Source: Candidatus Bathyarchaeota archaeon
GTDB lineage: Archaea > Thermoproteota > Bathyarchaeia > TCS64
DNA: 64,000 nucleotides
Direction of reading: 5' to 3'
Assembly (NCBI GenBank): GCA_020346605.1
Contig: CP070784.1
Location: forward strand, 1,440,702-1,504,701
Of the stretch, positions 7,470 to 27,689 are shown piece by piece. The notes beneath the pieces were generated by a model, which had not been told where the DNA came from, did not search any database, and saw nothing but the letters and a program-made list of their open reading frames with translations. The position numbers and the translations under genes were made by a program. The stretch's first letter is position 1. Each line of letters begins with the position of its first letter.

Positions 7470-7647
7470 GATGGTCAAGAAATTTGGCAGCCGTTTAATA
7501 ACGTTTGCATTCCGCTGCGCAATGGTCGTGAGGAGGCTTCCTCGGAATCTACTAGATCTTTTTAGCATCACCCTACGGGCCCAGAGGATAAATGATATCT
7601 CCGATAAGCGCCAAGTGCACTCGGACGTAACAGTGGGAGGAAAGAGG

Positions 7648-9384
7648 ATGGAGGAGATAACGGTCGAGGGTGCCGCCGACGGGTACGTAGAGCTTTTCAA
7701 CAGGTACGGCGTGGACTACGTCTTCAGCTCCCCGGGGACCGAGTTTGTCCCGCTCTGGGAGTACCTGGCAAAGTACAACTCCCAGGGGAAGAAGCCCTTC
7801 TACGTCAATACAAGGCACGAGGCAGTCTCGCTGACGATGGCGAAGGGGTACGCGATGGCAACCGGAAGGCCGCAGGTCGTCCTCACCCACGTCCTCGTTG
7901 GCCTCCTCCACGGGGCGATGGAGCTCAGGGCTTTATACACGGACAACGTCCCCGTCGTACTGTTCGTGGGGCAGGCCTGGACCCACGACCGGGAGGTCCA
8001 CGGTGGCACTCCTGGCTCCCACTACATGTCTTTCACCCAGGTCGGCGGGCAGCCGAGGGTCGTGCAGCCCTACGTGAAGTGGAGCAGCAGCCCCGCGTCC
8101 AACGCGAACATCCTCGACGTCCTGTCAAGGGCCTTCGACGTCGCCTCGTCCGATTTAAGGGGGCCCGTCGTAGTCGCCATCTCCAGGGAGCTCCTCTTCG
8201 AGAAGGTAGCGAGGATGAGGATGCCGGAGAGGAAGCCCCGACCCACCCAGGTACAGGCGGACCCCGTCGCCCTGAAAAGGCTGGCCGGGCTGCTCGCGGA
8301 GGCCGAATCTCCTCTGGTCTACACGAGGTACCTGGGTAGGAACCCTTCCGCAGTCTCGTCGCTGGTCGAGTTTGCCGAGATGCTCGCGCTCCCCGTTTTC
8401 GAGACGCCGGGATACGTGAACTTCCCCACCGATCACCCTCTGCACATGGGCTACAACATAGGGCCCCACAGTGCTAAATCCGACCTGATCCTCGTCATCG
8501 ACAGCAGCAGCTGGCCCCCGTGGTACCCGCCCACGAGCATCAGGGACAGCAGCGATGCGAAGATAGCCTTCATGGACATTGACCCGCTGCAACACAAGTA
8601 CCCGTCTTACACGTACCCCGCCGACATGCTCGTGACGGCCGATTCGAGCCTTGCCTTGCCGGCGTTGATCGACGCACTCGTGCCGCTACTGGAGGAATCC
8701 TCCGGAAGTCTGCGGAAGCGGCGCGACAGATGGGTGGAGGAGCACGTGAGGCTGCGCGACGAGTGGAGGAGGGAGGCCCTTGGTACAAGGGACGACGCTC
8801 CCATCGACCCCAGATGGCTCTGCCGCTGCATAGATGAGGTGCTGGACGAGGAGACCATCACCGTCAACGAGACCATAACCCACGGCAGGATAATCCACAG
8901 GCACGTCGAGGTAAACAGGGTCCGCCCAGGGACCCACTTCGAGGCGACGGGGCCGGTGGCGCACTCAGGCCTGGGGCAGGGGCTCGGGGTCGCCCTTGGT
9001 GTGAAGCTGGCCGAGCCCGGGAAGACCGTCATAGCCCTGGAGGGGGACGGGAGCTTCAACTACAACCCTATCCATGCGAACTTCGCCCTCTCCCAAGAGT
9101 ACGAGCTCCCCTTCCTGACCGTGATCTTCGACAACCTGTCCTACGCCGCTATGAAGCAGCACAGTAGGTTCTACCCGGACGGCTGGTCGGTGAAGGATGA
9201 GAGGTACTACGGTGTGTACATGAAGCCCAAGACCGACTACGTGAAGATCGCCGAGGCGTTCGGCGGGTACGGCGAGGTGGTCGAGGACCCTTCGGAGGTC
9301 AAGTCCTCGCTGCAAAGGGCTCTCGGGCAGGTGGAGGAAGGCAGGCTGGCGCTTATCGACGTGATGGTCAAGCCTCCTCTATAG
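7648..9384 (+). CDS. thiamine-pyrophosphate-dependent enzyme (acetolactate synthase / benzoylformate decarboxylase superfamily)
   Basis: Start re-picked at MEEITVEGAADGYVELFNRYGVDYVFSSPGTE (ATG at 7648, GGGAGG upstream). TPP-binding motif GDGSFNYN near the C-terminus. Three-domain length of 578 aa. Confidence 0.85.
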   Translation: MEEITVEGAADGYVELFNRYGVDYVFSSPGTEFVPLWEYLAKYNSQGKKPFYVNTRHEAVSLTMAKGYAMATGRPQVVLTHVLVGLLHGAMELRALYTDNVPVVLFVGQAWTHDREVHGGTPGSHYMSFTQVGGQPRVVQPYVKWSSSPASNANILDVLSRAFDVASSDLRGPVVVAISRELLFEKVARMRMPERKPRPTQVQADPVALKRLAGLLAEAESPLVYTRYLGRNPSAVSSLVEFAEMLALPVFETPGYVNFPTDHPLHMGYNIGPHSAKSDLILVIDSSSWPPWYPPTSIRDSSDAKIAFMDIDPLQHKYPSYTYPADMLVTADSSLALPALIDALVPLLEESSGSLRKRRDRWVEEHVRLRDEWRREALGTRDDAPIDPRWLCRCIDEVLDEETITVNETITHGRIIHRHVEVNRVRPGTHFEATGPVAHSGLGQGLGVALGVKLAEPGKTVIALEGDGSFNYNPIHANFALSQEYELPFLTVIFDNLSYAAMKQHSRFYPDGWSVKDERYYGVYMKPKTDYVKIAEAFGGYGEVVEDPSEVKSSLQRALGQVEEGRLALIDVMVKPPL

Positions 9385-9460
9385 AGGGTAAGAAGAAAAG
9401 AGGGAACGGCCAGGGCTGGCTCAAAGACATTTTATATTTTCACTGCCTCTGGGCACTGTG

Positions 9461-10531
9461 ATGGACATGCCCGTTCTACAATACAGGTTCGGCCAGACGA
9501 ATATCGCCAAGGTGAGCGGATCGGATGAGCTGAGGGAGGTCTTGGACGACCCCTGGCTCGAATCGGAGACCATTGTCATCAAGCCGAACTGGGTGGACAT
9601 AGATCGCGGTAGCTTCGTGGACGCTAGGACCCTGAGGACGCTGCTGGAGGCCCTCGACTCCAGGTTGGTGGTGACGGAGTCGCTCCACGTGGCCCGCTCC
9701 ATGAACCTCCTCAAGGATGGGATGAGCTTCATCGTCGGCGGCGAAGAGGTGAATTGGCGCTGGCTGCTCAAGGGCGCCGGTTGGAGGTGGCTCATCGAGA
9801 ATCCCGGCTGGGACTGGTTCAGGGGCGGCGGGCACTGGGCGCAGATCGTGAAGGAGGACAAGGCCTTCCTCGACGAGCATGGCTTCACGGACCTCTTCAA
9901 GGAGTTCAACGTCGAGTACATCAACACCACCGATGAGGTCTGGAACGGTAGGAACGCGGATCCGGCCGAGGTGAAGAGGGCCGTCGAGTCCCGCTTCGGA
10001 CCGGTCCGAGAAGAACGGCTCTACGGGATGGTCCCCCAGAGGCTCTACGATCTGCGAGGGTCCACCATGATAAGCCTGGCGAGGCTGAAGCAGTACGCCA
10101 CCTTCACCCTGAAGAACATTTTCGGGATGATAATCGACCCCATGAGGCCTTGGTGGCACGGGCTGAAGAACTCCAGGGTCTCTGCGAGCATCGTCGACAT
10201 CAATAAGGTCTACCGCTCCATCTTCAACGTCTACGGGATCTGCGCATCGCTGTACGAGACCGCCGTCGCGAACCCCGAGGGAGAGTTCCAAGGGGCGTAC
10301 ATGGGGAGGTACGACATCGTCGATGGACTCGGGTTGGTGGCCTTCGGCAGGGACCCGGTGTCACTCGACAGGTTGCTCCTCAACCTCACGGAGCAGATAT
10401 CAACGCAGGCACCTGAGGTGAACTGTGCCCCCATCGAGCTGGCCGAGGAGGAGGGGCTGGGGGCCTGCGACGATGAAGCCCTCTTGGAGTCGAAGCTCAA
10501 GGTGGGTGTTTGGTTCTCGCCCCAGCTGTGA
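9461..10531 (+). CDS. DUF362-like protein
   Basis: TIVIKPNWV near the N-terminus and LKQYATFTLKNIFGMI resemble the KPN and KN-xG signatures of DUF362. The start could be GTG at 9458 or ATG at 9461. Confidence 0.55.
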   Translation: MDMPVLQYRFGQTNIAKVSGSDELREVLDDPWLESETIVIKPNWVDIDRGSFVDARTLRTLLEALDSRLVVTESLHVARSMNLLKDGMSFIVGGEEVNWRWLLKGAGWRWLIENPGWDWFRGGGHWAQIVKEDKAFLDEHGFTDLFKEFNVEYINTTDEVWNGRNADPAEVKRAVESRFGPVREERLYGMVPQRLYDLRGSTMISLARLKQYATFTLKNIFGMIIDPMRPWWHGLKNSRVSASIVDINKVYRSIFNVYGICASLYETAVANPEGEFQGAYMGRYDIVDGLGLVAFGRDPVSLDRLLLNLTEQISTQAPEVNCAPIELAEEEGLGACDDEALLESKLKVGVWFSPQL

Positions 10532-10600
10532 AGGGTTCGGCCCGTGTCTTCGTCATGAGAAACGTTATAATCGCCACAGAACCAGGTACCAGTCGAAGCC

Positions 10601-11878
10601 ATGTTCAGAGACATCCTTGTCATCGGCGCCGGAGTCCTGGGGCTGAGCTCCGCCCTCCACCTCAAGAGGACCAACCCCGATAAGGACGTCTTCGTCGTGG
10701 ACAGGCTCGGAGGACCCGGTCAGGGCAGCACCGCCAAGTGCGCCGGGATCTACTTGAACCACTCCACCACCGAGCTGAACCACATCCTCATGGACTCTAC
10801 CGTCGACTGGCTCCACCACCTCCACGACGACCTGGGCCACGACCTGAAGCTCGCCCAGCACGGATACCTGTACCTTCTAGACGAGGAGGAGGACAGGAAG
10901 CTGAGGGGCCCGGTCTCTAAGATGCAGGATATGGGCATCGACGTGAGGACCTACGACCGGGAGGAGCTGGAGCACATGATCCCGGACCTCATCACTGCCC
11001 CCGATGACGAGGATTCCCAGCTCATGGGGCTCAAGCCCATCGTCTCCGGCGTCTTCAGCGGTAAGTGCGGTGGCGTGGACGCCGACGCCCTCTCTCGCAG
11101 CCTCGAGGCCGAGTTCCTCAAGCTGGGGGGCGAGGTGAGTTACAACACCACCGCTGATAGGCTCATCGTCAAACCCGAGATGGAGCTTGGGATCCCAGGA
11201 GAGCCCTTCGTCTGGCAGGACATACACATCACAGGCGCAGAGACGAGCAGGGGGACCGTCGAGGCGGGCACCACCATCGTCGCCGCCGGCGTCTGGTCGG
11301 AGAGGCTCCTCGACCCCATAGGCTTCGACACCCTGATGAGGCCCAAGTCCCGCGCCATCTTCGTCTTCAAAGACCCGATGCTCGACGGGCTCCGCGACGC
11401 AGAGGGGTTCAGCTCCCTCAACGTGCTGCCCTTCACCCACATCGCTGGGGTGAAGACCTACCTGAAGGTGGAGCAGACCGAGGGAAGCATCTGGCTGGGC
11501 TGCGCCGACGATTTCGGCAGGCGCTATGGCCTCGAGGACGACCCCCAGCCCGAGAGGGGGCTCTACTCGAACAACATCTACCACGCCTTGGTGAAGCACC
11601 TCCCATGCTTCGAGAACCTCCGCCCAGTGAACATGTGGGCAGGGCAACGGTCGGTGCACAGGGTCGACAAGACCCCCGTCGTCGCCCCAGCCCCCGGGAT
11701 GATCTACGTCGGCTCAACCACAGGGAACGGCGTCACCAAGAGCGACGCGCTAGGCAGGACGGTCGCCGCCCTCTACGCCGGCGAGGATGAGGTCGAGGCC
11801 TACGGAGGGCGCCGCTTCAGGGCCTCCGATCTGGGCATCGAGCATCGAAGAGTTGAGATCGAGGAGTTCAAGGTATAA
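10601..11878 (+). CDS. FAD-dependent oxidoreductase (DAO / glycine-sarcosine oxidase-like family)
   Basis: N-terminal dinucleotide fold DILVIGAGVLGLSSALHL. Length 425 aa. C-terminal GSTTGNGVT region typical of the DAO family. Confidence 0.8.
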   Translation: MFRDILVIGAGVLGLSSALHLKRTNPDKDVFVVDRLGGPGQGSTAKCAGIYLNHSTTELNHILMDSTVDWLHHLHDDLGHDLKLAQHGYLYLLDEEEDRKLRGPVSKMQDMGIDVRTYDREELEHMIPDLITAPDDEDSQLMGLKPIVSGVFSGKCGGVDADALSRSLEAEFLKLGGEVSYNTTADRLIVKPEMELGIPGEPFVWQDIHITGAETSRGTVEAGTTIVAAGVWSERLLDPIGFDTLMRPKSRAIFVFKDPMLDGLRDAEGFSSLNVLPFTHIAGVKTYLKVEQTEGSIWLGCADDFGRRYGLEDDPQPERGLYSNNIYHALVKHLPCFENLRPVNMWAGQRSVHRVDKTPVVAPAPGMIYVGSTTGNGVTKSDALGRTVAALYAGEDEVEAYGGRRFRASDLGIEHRRVEIEEFKV

Positions 11879-11883
11879 GAGCA

Positions 11884-13035
11884 ATGCTATCAGGGAGCAG
11901 ATGCCGGCTGTGCGGTGACTCCGAGAGGATCGTGGCTGGAGCCCTCGGCGTCTGCCTGGACTGCATCAGGGGCAGGCCAAAGGAGGCGCTGCCCTTGGTC
12001 GCCGAGGTACATGCGAGGAGCAGGAGAGAGCACGGCCTCCCCGACCGTTCCCCCAGGACCGAGGGTGGGGCGCGGTGCGAACTCTGCTCCAACCGCTGCT
12101 CCATCGGCGTGGGCGAGTCGGGGTACTGCGGTCTCAGGGCCAACGACGGCGTCCTCAGGTCCATCTCCACGAGGGAAAGGGGGCTATACTACGCTTACAA
12201 GGACCCCCACGTCACCAACTGCTGCTCAGCCTGGTTCTGCCCCGCGGGCACGGGGGCCGGCTTCCCCGATTACGCTCACAGGGACGGCCCGGAGCACGGC
12301 TACAGCAACCTGGCTGTCTTCATGTACGGGTGCAACTTCGACTGCCTCTTTTGCCAAAACCCTTCCCACAAGGAGTTCACAGCGACCCCTCTCCCGGTAA
12401 CCGAGATCGCAGACAGGGTCGCCTCGGATCCCAACATCTCCTGCATCTGCTACTTCGGAGGGTCGCCCGAGCCCCAGCTCCCCTTCATACTGGAGGCCTC
12501 TCAGAGGGCGCTGGACGCCAGGGAGGAGAGACCGCTCCGCATCTGCTTCGAGTGGAACGGCTGCGGCCACCCTGGGCTGGTGCGCAGGGCCGCGGAGCTC
12601 TCCCTGAAGACGGGAGGTAACATCAAGTTCGACCTAAAGTGCTCCACGCCGGGGCTCAGCCTCGCCCTCAGCGGCGTCGACAACGGGAGGGCCTTCGAGA
12701 ACTTCGAGACCGTGGCCAGGGAGTTCCACACGGAGAGGCCGGGGCTCCCCGTGGTCACCGCAACAACCCTCCTAGTGCCGGGCTACGTCGACCCAGCGGA
12801 GGTCGAATCCATTGCGAGGTTCATCGCGGAGATAAATCCCTCCATCCCCTACGGCCTGCTGGCCTTCCACCCGGCGTACCGCATGGGCGACCTCTCATAC
12901 ACACCCCTGGAGCAGGCGGCGGAGTGCTACAGGGCGGCGAGGAGGCACCTGAAGCGGGTAAACGTGGGTAACCTCCACATCCTGGGGCTCCGAAGCATGG
13001 AGCAGTTCCTCCTAAGGACGGGGATGAATGGGTGA
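11884..13035 (+). CDS. radical SAM protein, PflA/AmmeMemoRadiSam-like activase family (COG1180 type)
   Basis: CNFDCLFCQNPSH is a CxxxCxxC cluster motif. N-terminal Cys-rich ribbon CRLCGD...CLDCIR and CELCSNRCSIGVGESGYCGLR. Starts 5 nt after the FAD oxidase stop. Confidence 0.8.
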   Translation: MLSGSRCRLCGDSERIVAGALGVCLDCIRGRPKEALPLVAEVHARSRREHGLPDRSPRTEGGARCELCSNRCSIGVGESGYCGLRANDGVLRSISTRERGLYYAYKDPHVTNCCSAWFCPAGTGAGFPDYAHRDGPEHGYSNLAVFMYGCNFDCLFCQNPSHKEFTATPLPVTEIADRVASDPNISCICYFGGSPEPQLPFILEASQRALDAREERPLRICFEWNGCGHPGLVRRAAELSLKTGGNIKFDLKCSTPGLSLALSGVDNGRAFENFETVAREFHTERPGLPVVTATTLLVPGYVDPAEVESIARFIAEINPSIPYGLLAFHPAYRMGDLSYTPLEQAAECYRAARRHLKRVNVGNLHILGLRSMEQFLLRTGMNG

Positions 13036-14237: not shown

Positions 14238-14606
14238 ATGTTCTCGAACTACGAGGCGACCCCCGAGGACGAGGACGAGATCATCAGGAGGGTGGCTGAG
14301 GAGGTCCACAAGCGTGGCATGGAGATCCCAGCCATCATCATGCTGGAGACCCTCAACCCCCTGAGCTTCATGGGAGCGACCATGGGCCGCCTCTTCCTCT
14401 CACCCGTGCTGCCGGCCCTGGGAGAAGACCTGGGAATGAAGGGAGAGATCGTCCTCCAAGTCTTCGAGAAGCACTCCAACATCGAGAAACTCATCTCCCT
14501 AATTGAGGCCATGACAAAGGAGGAGAAGACAAATAAGGCGCCCTCCAGAGAGGAGGGAAAAGAAGATAAATCGAAGAAAGGCTGGAGGCGCTTCCTCCCC
14601 TTCTAG
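14238..14606 (+). CDS. A0: small conserved protein with a Lys-rich tail (paralog of 30649..31011)
   Basis: Start re-picked at MFSNYEATPEDEDE (ATG at 14238). It aligns by eye with the 120-aa protein at 30649..31011: EDEDEIIRRVAEEVHKRGM...MLETLNPLS against EEEDELIEKLAQNIVKRKM...TLETISPIS. No family recognised. Confidence 0.65.
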   Translation: MFSNYEATPEDEDEIIRRVAEEVHKRGMEIPAIIMLETLNPLSFMGATMGRLFLSPVLPALGEDLGMKGEIVLQVFEKHSNIEKLISLIEAMTKEEKTNKAPSREEGKEDKSKKGWRRFLPF

Positions 14607-14721
14607 ACCCTTTAGGGAGTCCAAGGGGCCGTAACCGGTATTTTTCAGAAAGCCTTAAGGGCGACCTTATAAAAATGACTACGGAATTACGTTGGCCTCA
14701 CTCAGGAAACCACTAGACGAG

Positions 14722-16548
14722 ATGCAGTACATCCTAGCGACCGACGTCGGCAGCACGACAACCAAAGCCAGATTCTTCCACAAGAATGCCGGCGAGTGGA
14801 GGTTCCTCGTGTCCGGGGAGGCTCCCACCACCGTCGAGGCCCCCTACGAGGACGTGACAATGGGCGTCCAGAACGCCGTCAGGGAGGTCGAGGAGCTCAC
14901 AGGCCACAAGATACTGGCCCCTGACGGGAGCGGCATCGTAGTCCCCTACGATGGCGAGAGGGGTGTGGACCTCTACTGCACCACCAGCAGCGCGGGGGGC
15001 GGCCTCCAGATGATGGTAGCGGGCCTCATCAAGATGATGACCGCCGAGAGCGCCAACAGGGCGGCCCTTGGCGCAGGGGCCATCGTTATGGACGTCATCG
15101 CCCAGGACGACGGACGGCGGATCTTCCAGAAGATACAGAGGATACGCAACCTCAGACCCGACATGATTCTCCTCGCCGGCGGTACGGACGGAGGGGCGAC
15201 CGCCAGAGTCATCGAGATCGTAGAACTCATCAAGGCTGCCGAGCCCAAGCCCAGGCTCGGGGTGGCCTATAAGCTGCCCATCGTCTACGCCGGCAACAAG
15301 GACATCAGGCCGAAGATCAACGAGCTGATGGGCGGCGACTTCGCTCTGGACATGGTGGACAACATCCGCCCCGTCCTCGAGATAGAGAACACGGAGCCCG
15401 CGCGCCGCGCCGTCCACGAACTCTTCATGGAGCACGTGATGAGCCACGCCCCGGGGTACACCAAGCTCATGAAGTGGACGGATGTGGACATCATGCCCAC
15501 CCCTGCGGGCGAGGGGATGGCGATGCAGCTCATCGCCAGCAGATTCAAGGAGAACGTCTTGGGCGTCGGGCTGGGCGGGGCCACAACCAACGTGTACTCG
15601 ATCGTGGATGAGCGCTTCGTCAGGAGCGTCAGCGCCAACCTGGGGATGAGCTACAGCGTCACCAACGTCATGAAGGAGGCAGGCATCGAGAACATCCTGC
15701 GATGGCTGCCCTTCGAGCTCGACGAGGAGGACGTCTCCAGCAGGCTGATGAACAAGATGATCCGCCCCACAACCATCCCACAAATGCTGGAGGACCTCAT
15801 CGTCGAGCACTCCGTCGCCCGAGAGGCCCTCCGCCTGGGCCTGGAGCACCACAGGACCATAGCGACCCGGCTCAAGGGGATCCAGATACAGAGGGACATC
15901 GCCTCGATGTTCGAGCAGCAGGTTGAGGAGTCATACGTTAAGATGAGTGAGATCGACATCATCGCCGGAACAGGCGGCCTGCTGAGCCACGCCCCGAGGC
16001 GCATCCAGTCGATGTTGATCCTCACGGACGCTTGGCAGCCCGAGGGAGTGACAAAGATGTTCCAGGACAGCGTCTTCATGATGCCCCACCTCGGCGTCCT
16101 CTCCACGGTCCACAGAGACGCCGCATGGAACATCTTCGACAAGGACTGCCTCGTTAGGCTGGGCACATGCATAGCTCCGGTGGGGACGGTCTCTGGGGAC
16201 GTCCAAGCTCGAGCGCGGGGGGAGCGAGTCATGACGGTGGAGCTCATATTGCCCGACGGAGGGACCGTCGTGGAAGAGCTCGATTACGGCGAGGTGAAGT
16301 GCATAGAGCTCCCGGAGAGGCAGGAGGCTAAGGCTGTCATCACGCCCAGCAGGCGTTTCGACGTGGGTAGAGGGACCGGAAGTACCGTCGAGAAGACGGT
16401 CATGGGAGGGGTTGCCGGGGTGCTCCTCGACGCGAGGGGGCGACCTCTGCATCTGCCGGTAGAGGAAGACAAGAGGAGGAGGCTGCTCCTGGAGTGGTTC
16501 GAGGCACTGGAGCTTTACGACAAGGACAAGTTGGAGGAGTGGATCTGA
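14722..16548 (+). CDS. A1: double ASKHA (actin/Hsp70-fold) ATPase, GlmL/MutL-like
   Basis: Two phosphate-loop sets: ILATDVGSTTTKA with LLAGGTDGG, and GVGLGGATTNVYS with IIAGTGGLLSHAP. This matches the GlmL/MutL, hydantoinase-A branch. The start is ATG at 14722 or TTG at 14692. It has a paralog at 31202..33040. Confidence 0.8.
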   Translation: MQYILATDVGSTTTKARFFHKNAGEWRFLVSGEAPTTVEAPYEDVTMGVQNAVREVEELTGHKILAPDGSGIVVPYDGERGVDLYCTTSSAGGGLQMMVAGLIKMMTAESANRAALGAGAIVMDVIAQDDGRRIFQKIQRIRNLRPDMILLAGGTDGGATARVIEIVELIKAAEPKPRLGVAYKLPIVYAGNKDIRPKINELMGGDFALDMVDNIRPVLEIENTEPARRAVHELFMEHVMSHAPGYTKLMKWTDVDIMPTPAGEGMAMQLIASRFKENVLGVGLGGATTNVYSIVDERFVRSVSANLGMSYSVTNVMKEAGIENILRWLPFELDEEDVSSRLMNKMIRPTTIPQMLEDLIVEHSVAREALRLGLEHHRTIATRLKGIQIQRDIASMFEQQVEESYVKMSEIDIIAGTGGLLSHAPRRIQSMLILTDAWQPEGVTKMFQDSVFMMPHLGVLSTVHRDAAWNIFDKDCLVRLGTCIAPVGTVSGDVQARARGERVMTVELILPDGGTVVEELDYGEVKCIELPERQEAKAVITPSRRFDVGRGTGSTVEKTVMGGVAGVLLDARGRPLHLPVEEDKRRRLLLEWFEALELYDKDKLEEWI

Positions 16549-16549
16549 G

Positions 16550-17701
16550 ATGAGCAACGAAAAGACTGATGACAAGATCTCTGAGGAGGCCCACGCCTAT
16601 ACCCCAGGCCTGAAAGTAAAGAGGTCGATGACCGTCCGGCAGACCCGCCGCCTCCCCATCCCGGGCAAGGTTCTCGTCAAAGTCGGCGACGAGGTGGACC
16701 ATGACACAATAGTAGCTGAGGCCGAGATAAGCAGTGAGCCCGAGATCGTGAAGGCGTCATCGATTATGGGCGTCGAACCCTTGGACCTTGAGCGGTACAT
16801 GTTGAAGAAGGAGGGCGACCCTGTCGAGGAGGGAGAGAACATCGCTTACTTCAGCGCTCTCTTCGGCCTGATAAAGAAGCAGGTCACATCCCCCATCAAG
16901 GGATACATTGAGTCCATCTCGGAGATCACCGGTCAGCTGATCGTGCGCGGGGCGCCAGTCCCCGTCAAGGTGGATGCCTATATCCCGGGTAAGGTTGTCG
17001 AGGTAATCCCGAATGAGGGGGTGGTTATAGAAATCAACGCAGCATTCATCCAGGGCATCTTCGGCATCGGCGGGGAGAGCCATGGAAAGCTAAAGGTCGC
17101 CGTGGAGTCCTCTAACGATGAGCTCAACACGGATGCTATAGGCCACGAGGATAAGGATGCGGTGCTTGTGGGAGGTTCCATGGTCACCATGGACGCCCTC
17201 AGGAAGGCTGTCGACATAGGTGTCTCTTGCATCGTGGTGGGTGGCATCCGCCACAATGACCTGATCAAGTTCACGGGTGAGGAGGTCGGCGTCGCCATCA
17301 CTGGCCACGAGGAGGTCGGCCTGACGTTGATCGTTACAGAGGGCTTCGGGAAGATGACGATGTCTCAGAAAACCTTCGACCTACTGAAGAGCTATGAAGG
17401 CCACCTCGCCTCGGTGAACGGGACGACCCAGATTAGGGCAGGCGTCATGAGGCCAGAGATCGTGATCCCCCACGGCGGCGCCGTTGAGGCGTCCGAGGAG
17501 TTCTCCTCGGGTATGGTACCTGACACGCCTGTTCGAATAATACGACAGCCTTACTTCGGCGCCATCGGCGTCGTCTCGAGCCTTCCCGTAGAGCTCCAGC
17601 AGTTGGAGTCCGAGTCATATGTGAGGATATTAAACGTTAAGTTGGGAGACGGCAAAGTCGTCACCGTACCGAGGGCCAACGTCGAGATAATTGAGGAATG
17701 A
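16550..17701 (+). CDS. A2: barrel-sandwich-hybrid (lipoyl/biotinyl-like fold) domain protein, function unknown
   Basis: Hairpin motifs PIPGKVLVKVGDEVDHDTIVAEAE, EGDPVEEGENIAYF and TSPIKGYIESI. There is no AMKM or DKA cofactor lysine. The ATG lies 1 nt after the A1 stop, with GGAGGAG inside the A1 3' end. Paralog at 33041..34195. Confidence 0.7.
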   Translation: MSNEKTDDKISEEAHAYTPGLKVKRSMTVRQTRRLPIPGKVLVKVGDEVDHDTIVAEAEISSEPEIVKASSIMGVEPLDLERYMLKKEGDPVEEGENIAYFSALFGLIKKQVTSPIKGYIESISEITGQLIVRGAPVPVKVDAYIPGKVVEVIPNEGVVIEINAAFIQGIFGIGGESHGKLKVAVESSNDELNTDAIGHEDKDAVLVGGSMVTMDALRKAVDIGVSCIVVGGIRHNDLIKFTGEEVGVAITGHEEVGLTLIVTEGFGKMTMSQKTFDLLKSYEGHLASVNGTTQIRAGVMRPEIVIPHGGAVEASEEFSSGMVPDTPVRIIRQPYFGAIGVVSSLPVELQQLESESYVRILNVKLGDGKVVTVPRANVEIIEE

Positions 17702-17958
17702 TCCTCCAATTCGACACGTTTTAAATTATGTTCTATTTTTTAGAGCTCCTATTCTCGTCTCTCCGGGCGTACCTCCTCTCGTAGCGGTAATGTTAACTAC
17801 AGGTGAAGGCGAAAAGTAAAACTCTTTCACGATTTTTTTACCCAGTGAAAGGCTTAAACTACGAAAAATAGTTAATTTTAAACCATTTCAGCGAGAATTG
17901 TTAAATATACAATCTAGTAAATTCTATCTGCAAGAAAAACAAGGAGACGTTTGAATAC
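17702..17958 (+). promoter_or_regulatory. AT-rich promoter/leader region for the B1-B4 membrane operon
   Basis: A 257-bp AT-rich gap in a GC-rich operon context. TATA-like TTAAATATA at 17901-17909. AAGGAG at 17941-17946, 12 nt before the ATG at 17959. Confidence 0.5.
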
Positions 17959-18744
17959 ATGGCAATACTAATCGAAGGTAGAATCTTCGGTTTACTGTGT
18001 CTAATAGTAATCATGGCAGCGGTTGCTTACTACATCAAGGCAGCTGAAGGAGGTAGAGTCCCGAGGATAAGAAGGGTTGCCGGCATTGACGCCATCGATG
18101 AGGCAATCGGTAGGGCAGTGGAGATGGGGCGACCCATTATCTGTTCACACGGCATCGCCGACTTGAGGGGCGCAACGTCGGGACCCCAGACACTCGCTGG
18201 GCTCAGCGTGCTGAGCTATGTAACGAAAAGGGCTATCGCCAGTAGTGCAAAAGTCCTAGTCCCTGTGAGGCAGCCAGAGGTCTGGCCAATCGCAGCTGAC
18301 ATCATGGAGACCGAGTACAAGTTGGCCGGCAAGGCCGACGAGTATGACTCCGATGATATCAGGTTCCTCTCTACAGCCCAGTTCGGGTTCTCTTCGAACT
18401 ACATGGGCCTGATGATGAGGGAGAGGCCAGGGGCGAACATCATGATCGGAGCATACTGGGCTGAGTCACTACAACTCGCTGAGACCGGCAGCAGAGTCGG
18501 AGCGTTCCAGATCGCTGGCACGGCGCAAACATCACAGATTCCTTTCTTCCTTGTGTGCGCTGACTACTGCCTCATTGGCGAGGAGATCTACTCCGCCGGT
18601 GCCTACCTGACACAGGACGCGCCTCTCGTAGCGAGCTTGGCGGGTCAGGACGTCGGCAGGATAATCGCGGTGATCCTCAGCGTACTCGGAACACTGCTAT
18701 ACACGGCTGGCATGACGGTCCTTCTGGACCTCTTCGGGATGTGA
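17959..18744 (+). CDS. B1: bitopic membrane protein (N- and C-terminal helices flanking a polar domain of about 200 aa), family unknown
   Basis: Hydrophobic helices IFGLLCLIVIMAAVAYYI and IIAVILSVLGTLLYTAGMTVLL. Conserved RRV..(I/L)DAI(D/E)(E/D)A(I/V)GRA.EMG(R/K)P shared with the paralog at 27690..28484. Confidence 0.7.
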   Translation: MAILIEGRIFGLLCLIVIMAAVAYYIKAAEGGRVPRIRRVAGIDAIDEAIGRAVEMGRPIICSHGIADLRGATSGPQTLAGLSVLSYVTKRAIASSAKVLVPVRQPEVWPIAADIMETEYKLAGKADEYDSDDIRFLSTAQFGFSSNYMGLMMRERPGANIMIGAYWAESLQLAETGSRVGAFQIAGTAQTSQIPFFLVCADYCLIGEEIYSAGAYLTQDAPLVASLAGQDVGRIIAVILSVLGTLLYTAGMTVLLDLFGM

Positions 18745-18750
18745 TGATGA

Positions 18751-19407
18751 ATGTCTGATGTATTAAGAAGGATCGAAATACCGATTTTTATAACGGCGTT
18801 CTGCACAATACTGCAAGTAATCCCCTACTATTTCAACATACCAGTGATTGACTCGGCCTCGGCAACCATGAGAGACTGGATGCTGTTGGTCGTCAACTGC
18901 GCCGTTTTCGTCGGCGTCGTATCCCTTGGCCAGGTCCACGGAAAGAGGATCCAGAGAAGAGGCCAGCACTGGGAGTACAGCGTAGTCCTAATAGCCTTCA
19001 TGGTTGTCATGGCGCTCGTTGGCTTCCCCCTTGAGATGATCGGGCTCGGCTTCGACAACCCCCAGTACCTGTTCCTCTTCAACAACGTACTCAACCCGCT
19101 TGGTGGCACGATGTACAGTATACTGGCGTTCTTCATCACCTCCGCAGCTTACAGGGCCTTCAGAGCGAGGAACTTCGAAGCAGGTGTAGTACTAGTCTCT
19201 GGAACAATCGTGGTGATGTCAAATGCACCCCTATTCACTTCCTCGCTACCTTTCTTGATCGACTGGAAGAACTGGATCTTCGACGTCCCGAATGCGTCCA
19301 CCGGGAGGGGAGTAATGATTGGTGCTGCGCTCGGCGCCGTCGCCCTCGCTGTGAGGACTCTGATGGGGATCGAGCGAGGCTATCTCCGAGGTGGAGGTGA
19401 GGAGTAG
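18751..19407 (+). CDS. B2: polytopic membrane protein (about 5 helices), family unknown
   Basis: About five hydrophobic segments. The conserved (Y/A)RAFRAR motif is shared with the paralog at 27034..27678. Confidence 0.7.
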   Translation: MSDVLRRIEIPIFITAFCTILQVIPYYFNIPVIDSASATMRDWMLLVVNCAVFVGVVSLGQVHGKRIQRRGQHWEYSVVLIAFMVVMALVGFPLEMIGLGFDNPQYLFLFNNVLNPLGGTMYSILAFFITSAAYRAFRARNFEAGVVLVSGTIVVMSNAPLFTSSLPFLIDWKNWIFDVPNASTGRGVMIGAALGAVALAVRTLMGIERGYLRGGGEE

Positions 19408-19409
19408 AG

Positions 19410-20258
19410 ATGTCTATACTGGATAGGATGCAGAACATCGACCGCCGGTATATCTACTTGGCGGGCTGGCTCTTCGTCTTATTCCCGCTCATGAATCCTC
19501 TTGGACTACCTGTACCCATCGGAAGGGAGTCCAGAGTCTGGTACCAGTACATCGAAGACATACCCAACGATAGCGTCATAATGTTCAGCATGGACTACGG
19601 TGTCTCGGGGATGCCCGAGCTTTACCCGATGACAGTCGCTACGATGCACCACTTATGGTCCAACGCACAGGCAAAGAACTGGAAGATAATCGTGATAGCC
19701 TTCTGGAACCAGGGACCACTCGTCTTCGACACGCTTCTGGGTCAGATAGATCCAGCCGAAAGGTACGGCGTGGTCTACGGTGAGGACTGGGTGGAACTTG
19801 GCTGGATTCCAGGTAGTGAGACAGGTATGGCGGCATTCGCAACTGACATATGGGGTCAGACCCCACGGGACTACCTCGAGGACAGACCCATCTCAGAATA
19901 CCCGATAATGGAGAACGTGAGGACGGCTGAGGACGTAGATCTCGTAATCAGCATAGAGACCGGTACGCCTGGCCTGCCCGAGTGGCTGCGCCAGTGGAAC
20001 GACCCCTTCGGCGTGCCCTTCATCGTGGGCTGCATCGGCGTATCGGTGCCCGGCATGGCGCCCTACCTGGCCTCGGGCCAGCTCTCGGCGCTGATGCCAG
20101 GCCTGACGTCGAGTGGTGAGTACGAGATACTGCTCAACAGACCCGGACTAGCCGTAGCAGGCCTCGACGCTGTGTCCATGTCCCACCTGCTGGTCGTATT
20201 TCTGGTGCTTATAGGTAACATCGCATACTTCGCCTCTAGAGGCAAGGAGGGCAGCTGA
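19410..20258 (+). CDS. B3: bitopic membrane protein with a central polar domain, family unknown
   Basis: ATG 2 nt after the B2 stop, with GGTGGAGGTGAGGAG upstream. N-terminal helix YLAGWLFVLFPLMNPLG and C-terminal helix LLVVFLVLIGNIAYFA. Paralog at 26169..27032. Confidence 0.7.
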   Translation: MSILDRMQNIDRRYIYLAGWLFVLFPLMNPLGLPVPIGRESRVWYQYIEDIPNDSVIMFSMDYGVSGMPELYPMTVATMHHLWSNAQAKNWKIIVIAFWNQGPLVFDTLLGQIDPAERYGVVYGEDWVELGWIPGSETGMAAFATDIWGQTPRDYLEDRPISEYPIMENVRTAEDVDLVISIETGTPGLPEWLRQWNDPFGVPFIVGCIGVSVPGMAPYLASGQLSALMPGLTSSGEYEILLNRPGLAVAGLDAVSMSHLLVVFLVLIGNIAYFASRGKEGS

Positions 20259-20259
20259 G

Positions 20260-20970
20260 ATGTGGGAGCTAATTGGAATCTGGGCTGCGGTCTTCTTCAC
20301 TCTGGCGATCTACAGCTTCCTCTATGGCGAGAACCCCTGGTTCCGCCTCGCAGAGCACATCTACGCCGGCGTATCGGTGGGCTACTCCGTGGCCTTCAAC
20401 CTCGACTACCTACGTGACCAATGGGTAAACAAGTGGTCCCTAAATGGGACTCTGATGTTGCTGTACGTCATCGCCATCTTGTTCGGGCTCCTATGGTATG
20501 CCAGGTTCACGCGGGAGTACTTCTTTGCCTACCGCTGGACCCTGGCCATCATCGTAGGGACCGGAATCGGGATGGCGCTGAGGACGGTGATCTTCACGCA
20601 GTTCCTGAACCAGATTATCGCCCAGTCAAACCTCTCACTGTGGGTGGCCGGCGACATCATAGGGACTGTCAGCAACATACTGATCGCAATAATGGTACCC
20701 AGCGTGCTGCTCTACTTCTGGTTTACAGGCGGACAGCGCGAGACGGGCGGAATGTACTACGTCGACAGGATCGCACGCTACACAATGATGGCTGGCTTCG
20801 GAGCCGCCTACGGATACACTGTACTGACCAGGTACTCGCTGTTCATCGGACGTTCCCAGTTCCTGCTGGGGATCACGCCGAACCCACCGGAGGCGAGGAT
20901 GGCGTTTTACGTCATCGCCGGTGTGATACTGATAACGCTCATCGGAAGGGATTTCCTGAAGAGATCCTAA
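20260..20970 (+). CDS. B4: polytopic membrane protein (about 6 helices), family unknown
   Basis: ATG 1 nt after the B3 stop, with AAGGAGGG upstream. The conserved LRT.IFT.FL.QI segment is shared with the paralog at 25446..26156. Confidence 0.7.
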   Translation: MWELIGIWAAVFFTLAIYSFLYGENPWFRLAEHIYAGVSVGYSVAFNLDYLRDQWVNKWSLNGTLMLLYVIAILFGLLWYARFTREYFFAYRWTLAIIVGTGIGMALRTVIFTQFLNQIIAQSNLSLWVAGDIIGTVSNILIAIMVPSVLLYFWFTGGQRETGGMYYVDRIARYTMMAGFGAAYGYTVLTRYSLFIGRSQFLLGITPNPPEARMAFYVIAGVILITLIGRDFLKRS

Positions 20971-24084: not shown

Positions 24085-25203
24085 ATGGTATTAATGGAGA
24101 AGGCGCTGAGCTGGACACGCCACGAGGTGGACAGCAAGGGGCTTAGAAGACCCGGGGAGTGCAAGATCGTCATCATAGGCGTAGGTGGCTGTGGCAACAA
24201 CACCATTGACAGGCTCATGAAGTCTGGGATGAACGGTGCCGAGTGCATCGCCATAAATACCGACGTGCAGCACCTCAACAACATCCACGCTGACAAGAGG
24301 ATCCTCATCGGTGAGAAGATCACACGAGGCTTAGGCGCGGGGAACATGCCCAACATAGGCGAGGATGCGATGAAGGAGAGCTCTAACGTCATCGAGCGCC
24401 TCATCGAGGGCGCAGACATCGTCTTTATCACGGCCGGAATGGGCGGAGGCACCGGAACGGGTGCGGCCCCAGTGGTCGCCGAGCTCGCAAAGGAAAACGG
24501 CGCCATCGTCGTCGGCGTGGTCACCATGCCCTTCAGACACGAGAAGGGGCGCTTCAACTACGCCCGGGAGGGGCTCAACAAGATAAGGAAGACCACCCAC
24601 ACAACCGTCATCATCGACAACAACAAGCTGATGGACCTAGTCCCCCAGCTCCCCATAAACACGGCGTTCACCTTCGCCGACAGTATCCTCGCCAACATGG
24701 TGAAGGGGATCGTGGAGACCATAGCCCTCCCGAGCCTCATCAACCTAGACTTCGCAGATTTCCGCACCATAATGACCAAGGGAGACGTCGCCATCGTCGG
24801 CATGGGGCAGAGCAACAGCCCCGAGCGTGCTGAGGAGGCCGCCCGGAACGCCCTGGAGCACATGCTGCTGGACGTCGACTACGCGGGCGCAGACGGAGCT
24901 CTGATCCACGTCAGCGGTGGCCCAGACATGAGCCTCGGCGAGGCAGTACGTGCCGCCGAGTGCGTCACTGAGATGATGGACGACAAGGCGATGGTGATCT
25001 GGGGCTCCAGGGTCGACCCCGACATGAACGACATGCTCAGGGTCACTCTGGTCCTCACCGGGATCCGCTCCCCCCAGCTGGTGAGCGGCTACGAGGTCCC
25101 ACAGGTCAAGCTCTACCAGCTGGAGCCCTACGCCGGGCCCGAGAGAATCCTGGGACTGGAGCTAGGCCTCTACGACATGGAGAGCCCCTTCAACCTCGAC
25201 TGA
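24085..25203 (+). CDS. ftsZ: cell division protein FtsZ
   Basis: Tubulin/FtsZ signatures IIGVGGCGNNTIDRL, GLGAGNMPNIG and ITAGMGGGTGTGAAPVVA. Confidence 0.95.
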   Translation: MVLMEKALSWTRHEVDSKGLRRPGECKIVIIGVGGCGNNTIDRLMKSGMNGAECIAINTDVQHLNNIHADKRILIGEKITRGLGAGNMPNIGEDAMKESSNVIERLIEGADIVFITAGMGGGTGTGAAPVVAELAKENGAIVVGVVTMPFRHEKGRFNYAREGLNKIRKTTHTTVIIDNNKLMDLVPQLPINTAFTFADSILANMVKGIVETIALPSLINLDFADFRTIMTKGDVAIVGMGQSNSPERAEEAARNALEHMLLDVDYAGADGALIHVSGGPDMSLGEAVRAAECVTEMMDDKAMVIWGSRVDPDMNDMLRVTLVLTGIRSPQLVSGYEVPQVKLYQLEPYAGPERILGLELGLYDMESPFNLD

Positions 25204-25445: not shown

Positions 25446-26156
25446 TTAACCTGCTGAAAGTTTCTCTCCTAGGCCTGTCTTGTCGAAGACTATCGCTGCT
25501 ATCAGGCAGATCACTGCCGAGCCGACGGTGTAGGTCACCTTCCAGTCCGGCGTAGTCAGGCTCTCCATGTAACCGACGAAGAGCCCCAGCCTTCCCATGA
25601 ATGTCTGTGAGAAGATGGCCCCGAAGCCGATGTACATGAGGTACTCCCCTATCTTGGATGTCCAGAGGAGTGGTCCCGTGAGCTCCATGGTGTAGAGGAA
25701 GAACGTCAGTATCGTGACCACAGAGACCGCCACGGTGAGCCTGTAGAGGAACTCCAAGGGCACGCCAGTCCACAGCTTGACGATGGTCGCGTCTATCTGC
25801 CTGAGGAACGACGTGAAGATCTGTGTCCTGAGGGACAGGGCTAGGCCCGTCCCCACGGTGAAGGCCAGCGGTAGCCTCGAGATGTAGCTGTACGTGGGGT
25901 GAACCCTGAATAGCATCATTAACCCAAATATGATGGAGAAAATGAGGATCCAGTCCCCCGCCTGCATGCCGAGGATGGCTGTGTTCCAGACGTAGGTTAG
26001 GCCGATGACGATGCTGACGCCGGTAGCTGCACCCAGATATGAGAACTCCGCCCACGACCTCAGCGGGTTGGGCTTCCCATAGAGGGTCGTGTACATACAG
26101 AAGGATATGAAGATGCCGACTATTATAATGCTGAACTCCCAAAATTCAACTGCCAT
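25446..26156 (-). CDS. B4': polytopic membrane protein, paralog of 20260..20970
   Basis: Same length (236 aa) and helix pattern. Shares LRTQIFTSFLRQI with LRTVIFTQFLNQI in B4. Confidence 0.7.
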   Translation of the reverse strand: MAVEFWEFSIIIVGIFISFCMYTTLYGKPNPLRSWAEFSYLGAATGVSIVIGLTYVWNTAILGMQAGDWILIFSIIFGLMMLFRVHPTYSYISRLPLAFTVGTGLALSLRTQIFTSFLRQIDATIVKLWTGVPLEFLYRLTVAVSVVTILTFFLYTMELTGPLLWTSKIGEYLMYIGFGAIFSQTFMGRLGLFVGYMESLTTPDWKVTYTVGSAVICLIAAIVFDKTGLGEKLSAG

Positions 26157-26168
26157 TTCTTCATCCTC

Positions 26169-27032
26169 CTACCTGATTCCTGTCCTGTCCCTGTACGCTG
26201 TTTCTCGTGCCCATCCGTAGTGGCCGATGTTTCCGATCACGATGAAGGCCAACAGCATGTAGTGTCCTAAGGTGAACCCGTCCATCGCCTTTAGCCCCGG
26301 GCCAGGAGATCCGATGAGGAACTCCATTTCGGCTCCTCCTCTGGTGCTAGCCAGCACCGCGGTGTAGAGGCCGGCGTCGAGGTTCGCGAGGGCTCCTGGC
26401 ACCGACACGCCGATTGCGTTGACGATCATAGGCGTGTCGTAGGTCAGCACCATGTGCCTTACTATGTTTGTCGTGGCTAGTCCCGTCGTGTAGTCGCTGA
26501 TCATATCAAAGTCACCGGCGTTCTGCACGTCATCGAGGAAAGTCCCCTCGATCGAGTTCCCCTTCCAGTCGACCCTCACGTTGGCGTGGAAGTCCCCTGA
26601 CAAGGCTGCGACTGCAGCCTCGTTGGGCATTGTGTATCCGATGATGACGTAGTCCTCTCCCTCGGTATAGTCGTACCTGTCGAGCCAAGTACTTAGCTCC
26701 TTGAAGACGACATCGGGGATTGCTACACCCTCGAAGTGTCCGAACGCGATGATGAGCTTCACACCCTTCTCGATGAACATCTTGTGTGTGGCGAGTACTC
26801 CTGGCTTCAGCTCCATGTAGCCGCTGTACTCCATGTTCCAGGCGTCGAAGACGATGTCGCCCTCCTGCAGCGTGTTGATCTGGTTGTAATAGTGCTTCGT
26901 CATGGCGCTGACTCCGATGGGCATCCCGATCGGGTTGATCAGCGGTCCCAGAACGACGATGAAGAGGACGAGGTACACCCATCTCTTGTCGTATGTCGCC
27001 ATCAGCTTGAAGATTCCGCCTTCGTCGGCCAT
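26169..27032 (-). CDS. B3': bitopic membrane protein, paralog of 19410..20258
   Basis: Aligns by eye: DKRWVYLVLFIVVLGPLINPIGMP against DRRYIYLAGWLFVLFPLMNPLGLP, and AIGVSVPG against CIGVSVPG. The ATG at 27032 lies 1 nt after the B2' stop; the GTG at 27044 is an alternative start. Confidence 0.7.
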   Translation of the reverse strand: MADEGGIFKLMATYDKRWVYLVLFIVVLGPLINPIGMPIGVSAMTKHYYNQINTLQEGDIVFDAWNMEYSGYMELKPGVLATHKMFIEKGVKLIIAFGHFEGVAIPDVVFKELSTWLDRYDYTEGEDYVIIGYTMPNEAAVAALSGDFHANVRVDWKGNSIEGTFLDDVQNAGDFDMISDYTTGLATTNIVRHMVLTYDTPMIVNAIGVSVPGALANLDAGLYTAVLASTRGGAEMEFLIGSPGPGLKAMDGFTLGHYMLLAFIVIGNIGHYGWARETAYRDRTGIR

Positions 27033-27033
27033 C

Positions 27034-27678
27034 CTAACCCTCACCCTCCCCGAAGCCCAGGAACGCTACTTCCCTTCCCGTCAGCATGCGCACACCGAGG
27101 ACGATGGCGCCGATGCAGACGCTAATGGAGAACATCCTGGACACGGCCATTCCGAATGTGTCAGTGAGGTAGACCGCCGCCCCCTCGATCCCGGGGAAGA
27201 CGGCTCCCGTCAGCGGTGCCTGGTATAGGAGGACTATGAATCCGGCGATAAGCAGCAGTGCTGCATGGGGGCTCCGGGCTCTGAAGGCCCTGGCCCCTGC
27301 CGAGGCCATGTAGAAGGCGAGGATTCCGTAGATGACCGAGCTAAGCGGTGTCACCACTGCCTTGAGGAGCCAGTCATAGGCCCCTGCGTGCTGGCCAAAG
27401 ACGAAGCCGCTGAGGGTCATGATCACCAGCAGTACGAGGAGGTAGATGTGGTAGACCCAGCCTTTCCTCTTTTCGTTGATGAATCGGCCGCTCCTCCTCA
27501 GCTGTGAGTAGACGGCGATGACGATGGTGAAGGCGTTGGTTACAGCAGCGATGGTCATCAGCTTGCCTGAGAACCAGTCCAAAGGTCCCCACGGGACGAA
27601 GTACGGTACGAAGACGAGCAGGAAGGATACTACCAGTACGGAGATCTGCGCGCTCCGACTTTTAAAGAACGAAGACAT
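27034..27678 (-). CDS. B2': polytopic membrane protein, paralog of 18751..19407
   Basis: Shares SAGARAFRAR with SAAYRAFRAR in B2. Similar helix pattern. ATG at 27678. Confidence 0.7.
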   Translation of the reverse strand: MSSFFKSRSAQISVLVVSFLLVFVPYFVPWGPLDWFSGKLMTIAAVTNAFTIVIAVYSQLRRSGRFINEKRKGWVYHIYLLVLLVIMTLSGFVFGQHAGAYDWLLKAVVTPLSSVIYGILAFYMASAGARAFRARSPHAALLLIAGFIVLLYQAPLTGAVFPGIEGAAVYLTDTFGMAVSRMFSISVCIGAIVLGVRMLTGREVAFLGFGEGEG

Positions 27679-27689
27679 CACATTTCACC

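Follow-up and report, generated by a model that had tools for sequence, protein, structure and literature searches.

We analyzed a stretch of 64,000 nucleotides (hereafter the window) from the genome of a Candidatus Bathyarchaeota archaeon (GTDB lineage Archaea; Thermoproteota; Bathyarchaeia; TCS64; NCBI GenBank assembly GCA_020346605.1, contig CP070784.1, positions 1,440,702 to 1,504,701 of the forward strand), which carries two copies of a gene system that combines a predicted MutL/GlmL-family ATPase of the actin fold and four membrane proteins. Copy 1 consists of seven genes, which we divide into module A (A0, A1 and A2) and module B (B1 to B4). An initial annotation, made by reading the sequence of the window, had listed seven co-directional open reading frames (ORFs) at this locus, and the ORF list bears out each of them in position and strand (lengths in amino acids, aa):

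A0: 14238-14606, plus strand; 122 aa; the longest ORF starts at 14112, but homology to the family begins at about 14241.
A1: 14722-16548, plus strand; 608 aa; TTG at 14692 is an alternative start.
A2: 16550-17701, plus strand; 383 aa; translationally coupled to A1.
Intergenic gap between A2 and B1: 17702-17958, plus strand; 257 bp, 35% GC as against about 58% in its surroundings.
B1: 17959-18744, plus strand; 261 aa; PF20539 (DUF6754).
B2: 18751-19407, plus strand; 218 aa; polytopic membrane protein.
B3: 19410-20258, plus strand; 282 aa; membrane-anchored at both ends.
B4: 20260-20970, plus strand; 236 aa; polytopic membrane protein.

Three compact junctions preceded by Shine-Dalgarno motifs and one long AT-rich gap had also been described, and the sequence agrees on both counts. 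Stop and start codons are arranged as TGA-g-ATG between A1 and A2, TAG-ag-ATG between B2 and B3, and TGA-g-ATG between B3 and B4, with a GGAGG 9-17 nucleotides upstream at each of the three; the B1/B2 junction, absent from that description, has a 6-nucleotide spacer and is without a Shine-Dalgarno motif. An oligo-T run lies in the gap just past the stop codon of A2, TATA-like boxes stand ahead of B1, and a second oligo-T run follows the stop codon of B4; no Rfam family was detected in the gap. To judge from these signals, the gap probably holds a terminator and a promoter, and the oligo-T run after A2 together with the TATA-like boxes before B1 makes it plausible that modules A and B are two transcription units.

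The A1 protein matches the PF13941 (MutL/GlmL) model with 391 bits (threshold 27; 9e-117) over its residues 4-476 and over model positions 1-450, and its counterpart in the second copy, A1', scores 383.5 bits, which upholds the earlier placement of A1 in the GlmL/MutL branch of the ASKHA ATPases. The two sets of phosphate-loop motifs that had been noted in it (DVGSTTTKA, AGGTDGG, GLGGATTN and AGTGGLLSH) are all found, and 15 homologs from archaea and bacteria share their core residues without exception. Archaeal and bacterial versions of A1 are 50-54% identical to each other, with the phosphate-loop motifs and a GG..G..D.RGRP tail invariant, and about 130 conserved aa at the C-terminus, beta-rich by eye, extend beyond the PF13941 match. 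On the curated models A1 remains below the equivalog cut-offs for both GlmL (NF040745, 207.5 versus 475 bits) and Or-4 (NF040744, 205.6 versus 600 bits), as well as below the cut-off for the GlmL subfamily TIGR01319 (144 versus 204 bits), and a single-sequence search recovered no relative of A1 among PDB sequences. No B12-binding or mutase E-subunit family is found among its neighbors in the window; likewise, none of the annotated A1 neighbors in the related loci L081-L086 (L numbers denote loci of our survey, described below) is a B12 mutase, the sole B12-binding gene there coding for a radical S-adenosylmethionine (SAM) enzyme (L085, L086). As far as its sequence goes, A1 is a divergent MutL/GlmL-family ASKHA ATPase and not a GlmL equivalog, and is catalytically intact by its motifs. 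Given the missed GlmL and Or-4 cut-offs and the lack of a B12 mutase nearby, the GlmL analogy carries little functional information. To our knowledge, the function of GlmL itself has not been established experimentally, and no function is known for the MutL branch of the ASKHA superfamily.

Its coupled partner A2 had been described as containing barrel-sandwich-hybrid (BSH) hairpins devoid of the biotin- or lipoyl-bearing lysine, a description that holds: the BSH element is seen, and the position of the canonical EAMKM-type lysine is occupied by Phe or Gly in a hand alignment to the E. coli biotin carboxyl carrier protein motif. The lysine found 3-4 residues past this position, Lys109, is invariant in archaeal homologs and not in bacterial ones. 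A2 and its counterpart A2' reach 20.2 and 20.8 bits, respectively, against Biotin_lipoyl (PF00364), both below the threshold of 22.1, and A2 also matches RnfC_N weakly. A role as a biotin or lipoyl carrier was rejected on the sub-threshold PF00364 score and the missing lysine. An AlphaFold2 model of A2, with a mean predicted local distance difference test score (pLDDT) of 80.5, has the BSH hairpin in a beta-rich N-terminal region, which is followed by a small alpha/beta domain and, at the C-terminus, by a KOW/SH3-like barrel; Foldseek returns domain-level matches alone, to the KOW domain of NusG/Spt5 and to the BSH domain of the membrane-fusion protein BesA. Neither single-sequence nor profile searches detected a relative among PDB sequences. 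A2 is thus best described as a soluble multidomain protein of BSH, alpha/beta and KOW elements that belongs to no family. Its homologs number at least 7981 clusters at 90% identity, and no name among them is based on function; a few have the JGI labels 'biotin carboxyl carrier protein' or 'NusG', which apparently derive from the BSH and KOW domains.

The third component of module A, A0, is a small, soluble and helical protein, moderately hydrophobic in its central segment and rich in Lys and Glu in its tail, for which we found no Pfam family and, by hydropathy, no transmembrane (TM) helix. Iterated hidden Markov model searches place its family in 20 loci, both beside A1-A2 and beside B-only cassettes (L019, L058, L062, L073). 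A small two-TM protein, which we term c9, often precedes A0, and A0 and c9 together adjoin module B without A1 or A2 in these same four loci. In L138 (3266-10122) and L142 (3427-10122), two tandem A1-A2 pairs are accompanied by A0 and c9, with no B cassette within 9 kb.

The initial annotation had assigned A0 and B1-B4 to no family. This remains correct for A0, B2, B3 and B4, and was wrong for B1, a full-length match to PF20539 (DUF6754) at 265.8 bits (threshold 27; 4e-79), as is its counterpart B1' at 201.9 bits (1e-59). Its reading of the membrane proteins as two bitopic (B1, B3) and two polytopic (B2, B4) ones agrees with hydropathy. In B1, one TM helix at either end of the chain brackets a Rossmann-like alpha/beta domain in which many polar residues are invariant; in the AlphaFold2 model (pLDDT 82.5), a TM helix is followed by an alpha/beta sandwich of Rossmann-like type and by helices at the C-terminus. 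An exhaustive search of representatives counts about 2400 DUF6754 clusters at 50% identity, of which 1024 reach E<=1e-30, and a Nitrospira B1 query returns at least 8000 matches in 90%-identity clusters. Many bacterial versions are longer: some bear a signal peptide and an FN3-like domain before the first TM helix (certain long versions are named 'fibronectin type III domain-containing protein' at NCBI), and other representatives have multi-FN3 arrays, propeller-like repeats or, past the last TM helix, C-terminal PKD-like repeats, the PKD-like and propeller-like domains having sub-threshold support from PDB. From these long forms we conclude that both termini of B1 lie on the outer side of the membrane and its DUF6754 domain on the cytoplasmic side. 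Members of the family 800-1012 aa in length were considered as candidate fusions of B1, B2, B3 and perhaps B4; instead, they contain Ala/Glu/Arg-rich helical regions and PKD-like repeats.

B2 has 5-6 TM helices and a conserved AAYRAFRAR motif; in its homologs of 349-364 aa in L087, L088, L093 and L122, TM3 and TM4 are separated by an insertion of about 140 aa that looks helical by eye. B3 contains an acidic polar domain of about 200 aa (9 Lys/Arg versus 25 Asp/Glu) with a TM helix at each end, and this charge bias leads us to predict that the domain is extracytoplasmic. B4 has 4-6 TM helices. Scanning 35-41 members of each family singly yielded no consistent Pfam match for B2, B3 or B4, and profiles of B1-B4 found nothing among PDB sequences. 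An internal duplication of the cassette was considered and set aside, profile comparison giving probabilities of 6% for B1 versus B3 and 11% for B2 versus B4.

The second copy of the system in the window contains counterparts of all seven genes in a rearranged layout, where B4'-B1' and A0' are read from the minus strand and only A1'-A2' from the plus strand:

B4': 25446-26156, minus strand; located by tblastn and ORFs.
B3': 26169-27044, minus strand; located by tblastn and ORFs.
B2': 27034-27681, minus strand; located by tblastn and ORFs.
B1': 27690-28484, minus strand; PF20539.
A0': 30649-31011, minus strand; 120 aa, divergently oriented to A1'.
A1': 31229-33040, plus strand; 69% identical to A1.
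A2': 33041-34195, plus strand; 55% identical to A2.

With identities of 34% for A0 and 27-35% for B1-B4 besides those just given for A1 and A2, the copies are, as their sequence divergence indicates, old paralogs and not a recent duplication. Copy 2 is orthologous throughout to the locus L154, the divergent layout included (A1 89%, A2 81%, B1 86% and B3 81% identical). A 123-aa ORF coding for a two-TM hairpin (30278-30649, minus strand), the start of which overlaps the stop codon of A0', has no detectable relation to the bacterial c9. Directly after A2' lie genes for a creatininase-family protein (34242-35021, minus strand) and a CehA/McbA-type PHP metallohydrolase (35063-35716, minus strand), and on the other flank a gene for FtsZ (Tubulin and FtsZ_C domains; 24085-25203, plus strand) is convergent with B4'.

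To survey these genes in other genomes, we selected loci from both sides. A B1 profile, run over one genome per species, found at least 490 loci, of which 79 were taken; an A2-based sample comprised five Bathyarchaeial contigs and 80 loci from a metagenome scan with bacterial A2. The B loci come from the archaeal Bathyarchaeia, Methanomethylicia, Culexarchaeia and Nitrososphaerota, and from the bacterial Bacillota, WOR-3, Eisenbacteria, Acidobacteriota, Planctomycetota, Nitrospirota, Sumerlaeota, Armatimonadota and Proteobacteria. B1-B2-B3-B4 is complete and in constant order in 73 of the 79 species loci, with contig ends cutting five of the six exceptions, from which it follows that B1-B4 is one invariant unit. 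This unit is autonomous and usually stands alone. In L002 (10001-12225; CP070640.1, Bathyarchaeota bin91) we found B1-B3 and no detectable B4 despite 8.5 kb of downstream sequence. The unit also occurs in tandem, with three copies in two loci of Clostridia and two copies in several others; the former, from uncultured Clostridia (L030, 3360-12839; L031, 6678-16170), each hold three complete B1-B4 sets flanked by genes for TldD/PmbA peptidases and gyrA, with no A module within 10 kb.

In 16 of the 79 loci, B is directly adjoined by A1 and A2, usually together with A0. When counting is confined to the 34 well-flanked B loci, i.e. those with at least 5 kb on both sides, A1 and A2 occur within 10 kb of B in 10, all of them bacterial (10/22). 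The A-linked bacterial loci include representatives of Nitrospirota, Phycisphaerae, Sumerlaeota, Acidobacteriota and Deltaproteobacteria, to which Bathyarchaeia add L001 and L028. Viewed from the A side, where loci were chosen independently of B, B is within 3 kb in four of the five A2-selected Bathyarchaeial contigs, in the orders B-A, A-B and A-x-x-B. In the metagenomic scan, A1 is present in 34 of the 49 A2 loci with at least 2.5 kb upstream, and the 22 well-flanked A2 loci include A1 in 15 and B in 7. The linkage takes four gene orders in all (A-B, B-A, divergent and A-x-x-B), and in L160 A2 lies directly before B1 without A1. The A-B linkage is real but facultative, at about 30% in each direction, far above the chance adjacency of about 1% by our own estimate. 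The recurrence of an A1/A2-B association in other genomes, raised by the initial annotation, is therefore borne out across phyla and in several gene orders; its fixed seven-gene cassette resolves instead into two modules, with B mostly alone and A2 often without B and even without A1.

In Bathyarchaeia, at least four types of module B that share only 30-40% identity in B1 can be distinguished: copy 1 with L001 and L028; copy 2 with L154; L082 with L085 and L086; and L081. The A modules beside them are 68-89% identical in A1 and 55-81% in A2, and the A modules most similar to that of copy 1 are found in L082 and L085, where the B cassettes are of another type. That one type of A has been retained beside B cassettes that are not orthologous speaks for selection on adjacency and against inherited synteny.

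Among individual neighborhoods, L085 (9307-11828) and L086 (9439-11954) hold between A2 and B1 genes for a 357-aa protein without a Pfam match and the aforementioned B12-binding radical SAM enzyme. In L024 (8314-9729), from a metagenome-assembled genome (MAG) of Nitrososphaerota, and L026 (8423-9838), from a MAG of Culexarchaeia, a carboxyltransferase gene of the oxaloacetate-decarboxylase/pyruvate-carboxylase type (HMGL-like and PYC_OADA domains) is directly upstream of B1.

Based on these observations, we tentatively posit, at somewhat short of even confidence, that a conserved ATP-dependent A module docks on a variable four-subunit B complex and energizes or regulates it. B1-B4 would constitute an ancient integral membrane complex in which B1 puts a Rossmann-like domain in the cytoplasm, B3 puts an acidic alpha/beta-type domain outside, and B2 and B4 supply approximately 10-12 TM helices. 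The FN3, PKD-like or propeller-like arrays that B1 bears on its outward ends in many bacteria suggest that such a complex would link the cell surface with the cytoplasm, whether it is transporter-like or mechanotransducing. Module A would be cytoplasmic, membrane-proximal and ATP-dependent, with A2, the coupled partner of A1, as the likely docking subunit, since A2 alone can sit directly before B1, and A0, often with the small two-TM protein, as a bridging subunit. The A1 ATPase would act via A2 and A0, such that ATP hydrolysis drives a conformational cycle in B with transport or envelope work as its output. The conservation of A, even as B diversifies in type and in tandem copies, resembles that of a shared energizing or accessory module serving variable membrane modules, and both paralogous systems in the window have their own A and B. 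From the gene neighborhoods we infer that A and B may be in physical contact. A bolder formulation, in which A0-A1-A2 and B1-B4 would form an undescribed class of machines, with an ASKHA rather than a P-loop ATPase driving an envelope-facing complex of novel folds and A modules serving interchangeable B cassettes in thousands of lineages including Nitrospira and Bathyarchaeia, appears to us possible but doubtful.

Several points weigh against such an energizing role. No A module lies within 5-10 kb in 24 of the 34 well-flanked B loci, the archaeal ones having none (0/12), and conversely 15 of the 22 well-flanked A2 loci are without B, with six of the 22 lacking both A1 and B; the neighbors of A2 in the latter are genes for response regulators, histidine kinases, TatC, AccA and TopA. 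Foldseek searches with B1 return generic alpha/beta matches alone, at a TM-score of about 0.3, those with A2 do not extend beyond single domains, and no structure or profile ties B2 or B4 to any transporter fold. Furthermore, we know of no actin-fold ATPase that powers a membrane complex in this manner. The 'ATP-powered membrane machine' of the initial annotation, meant for transport or remodeling, stays a deduction from synteny. Its claim that the system is unlike any described one fares better, in that B1-B4 match no characterized transporter or respiratory family.

The most serious competing explanation, which we regard as possible though on balance unlikely, is that the connection is purely metabolic. 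Under it, B1-B4 would be a stand-alone secondary transporter or membrane enzyme, e.g. for peptides or cyclic amides, and A1-A2 a soluble ATP-dependent enzyme, or a chaperone or reactivase, acting in the same pathway on the imported compound or on another protein. It accommodates the frequent occurrence of either module alone and the presence of A2 by itself among housekeeping genes in many bacteria, and GlmL and Or-4, the other named members of the MutL family, are annotated as accessory proteins to enzymes and are themselves soluble by that annotation. Also in its favor, genes for amidohydrolases, creatininases, M20/M28 and TldD/PmbA peptidases recur near the cassettes: an amidohydrolase gene comes right after B4 in 12 Bathyarchaeial loci, creatininase, amidohydrolase and M20 genes are seen in L081, L082 and L084, neighbors of this general kind are found in some loci of Bacillota, and the creatininase-family gene adjoins A2' in the window. 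However, the amidohydrolase in Bathyarchaeia may reflect lineage synteny, and outside Bathyarchaeia the neighbors are heterogeneous: we found no consistent enzymatic neighbor there, with 112 Pfam families represented among 118 flanking proteins and amidohydrolases in two. The hydrolase and peptidase neighbors are a weak functional clue, in part explained by lineage synteny. Nor is there a riboswitch or other clue to a ligand, no Rfam element being detected ahead of the B cassettes in the window and in 17 bacterial loci. The direct pairing of B with A0 and c9, or with A2 alone, also speaks against a merely metabolic connection, and one conserved enzyme next to at least four very divergent B types would suit a shared module better than pathways each specific to a substrate.

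The actin fold of A1 raises the alternative of a polymerizing, actin-like A1 (compare MreB and FtsA) that, with A2 and A0, positions the B complex, perhaps in relation to division. The surface-type domains of bacterial B1, the potential membrane-tethering partner formed by c9/A0 and the FtsZ gene adjoining B4' would all fit this proposal. Nevertheless, it is improbable: FtsZ is convergent with B4', and the absence of any FtsZ match in the 165 related loci searched (0/165) implies that their adjacency is probably coincidental. Moreover, the MutL ('glutamate mutase') family has been placed among the non-polymerizing actin-fold enzymes (PMC5597319). That modules A and B have no functional link at all, and are together through inherited or accidental synteny, would agree with the absence of the other module from most B loci and most A2 loci, and with a mirror-tree correlation between A and B (0.57-0.75) lower than that within modules (0.88-0.90). 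We deem this quite improbable in the face of an adjacency that recurs in at least six phyla, two domains of life and four gene orders, is seen in both paralogs in the window and pairs non-orthologous B types with one A type.

Lastly, a set of one soluble protein that begins with a BSH domain, two bitopic subunits and two small polytopic ones brings to mind a very divergent ion-translocating complex of the Rnf/Nqr kind, in which the counterpart of RnfC/NqrA would be A2, those of RnfA/E would be B2 and B4, and those of RnfG/NqrC would be B1 and B3. Subunit sizes and topologies run parallel, A2' reaches 25.8 bits against RnfC_N (gathering threshold 25.6) along with a weak match to NQRA_N, and one of 35 B2 homologs matches PF02508 (3e-5). 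Direct profile comparisons, on the other hand, refute this proposal at the level of sequence and fold: hhalign gives probabilities below 1% for B2 and B4 versus E. coli RsxA and RsxE, A2 aligns with RsxC over a 37-column BSH hairpin only (0.2%), B3 versus RsxG yields nothing, and Foldseek with A2 returns neither NqrA nor RnfC. No Fe-S, flavin mononucleotide or NADH motifs or domains, nor other redox cofactor motifs, were detected, and an ATPase partner takes the place of the NADH/ferredoxin modules. We accordingly consider it very improbable indeed.

The preferred reading of A as an energizing or regulating module for B can also be set against other known systems. With GlmL and Or-4, A1 shares the whole span of the PF13941 model and the ASKHA phosphate-binding motifs; it differs in falling below the equivalog cut-offs, in its additional conserved C-terminal domain, and in being coupled to A2 rather than to the S and E subunits of a B12 mutase, none of which is encoded nearby. 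The ASKHA reactivases and chaperones, such as DdrA, EutA and Hsp70/DnaK, are actin-fold ATPases in which ATP changes the conformation of a partner, and a comparable reactivase-like action of A1 on A2 or B is plausible as a working model. A1, however, has no detectable sequence relation to them beyond the superfamily, and its partners are a BSH/KOW protein and a membrane complex. The logic is also similar to that of the ECF and ABC importers, in which an energizing module is shared by variable membrane components: in the present system, a conserved soluble ATPase module is seen beside several membrane modules that diverge fast and can also stand singly or in tandem. The ATPase here, by contrast, is of the actin fold, and neither a P-loop ABC ATPase nor EcfT or an S-component is detectable. 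Indeed, an ABC or ECF transporter was rejected, as the seven proteins have no ABC, ECF or other transporter match in Pfam and NCBIfam and member-wise scans of B2-B4 were negative. An anti-phage defense system was likewise rejected, with no match for any of the seven proteins in PADLOC-DB 2.0 at E<=0.01. The DUF6754 family, of which B1 and B1' are full-length members, is without functional annotation, and neither its constant B2-B3-B4 partners nor its link to A are recorded in the annotations that our searches returned. We rate the system as probably outside the known kinds, with only the superfamily placement of A1 mapping onto a described one.

Elsewhere in the window, four genes co-directional with copy 1 lie upstream of A0 (7450-13035, plus strand), coding for a thiamine pyrophosphate enzyme, a DUF362 protein, a DAO-family flavin adenine dinucleotide-dependent oxidoreductase and a glycyl-radical-activase-like radical SAM enzyme. 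A link to AmmeMemoRadiSam was considered and dismissed, as the radical SAM protein of the window reaches 42 bits where the cut-off is 220, and the adjacency of Memo genes, which follow B4 in Nitrospira, is lineage-restricted. A tRNA gene (6483-6557) adjoins that for a 966-aa FtsX-like permease with a CarboxypepD_reg domain (3393-6293), and the first 3 kb of the window (1-3000) have a GC content of 0.43-0.48 as against about 0.6 elsewhere.

The A2 and B1 families are very large, spanning TACK archaea and at least eight bacterial phyla, with Nitrospira and Bathyarchaeia, both of ecological importance, among their carriers, and we found no public annotation or paper that gives them a function. 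Their homologs are publicly named 'hypothetical', 'DUF6754 domain-containing' or by domain-derived labels; within the library searched, we found no paper mentioning DUF6754 or PF13941, and the searches for GlmL and ASKHA returned nothing on this clade. With a fixed gene set, two modules and a presence in bacterial lineages that include cultured relatives, the system is directly testable. Should the connection be only metabolic, B1-B4 would still represent a new, widespread four-subunit membrane complex with surface FN3, PKD and propeller decorations, and would bear on the way in which nitrifiers and uncultured sediment archaea meet their surroundings. If, on the other hand, A powers or regulates B, it would reveal a new principle of energy coupling, in which an actin-fold ATPase drives a membrane complex, and would provide a role for the MutL branch of the ASKHA superfamily.

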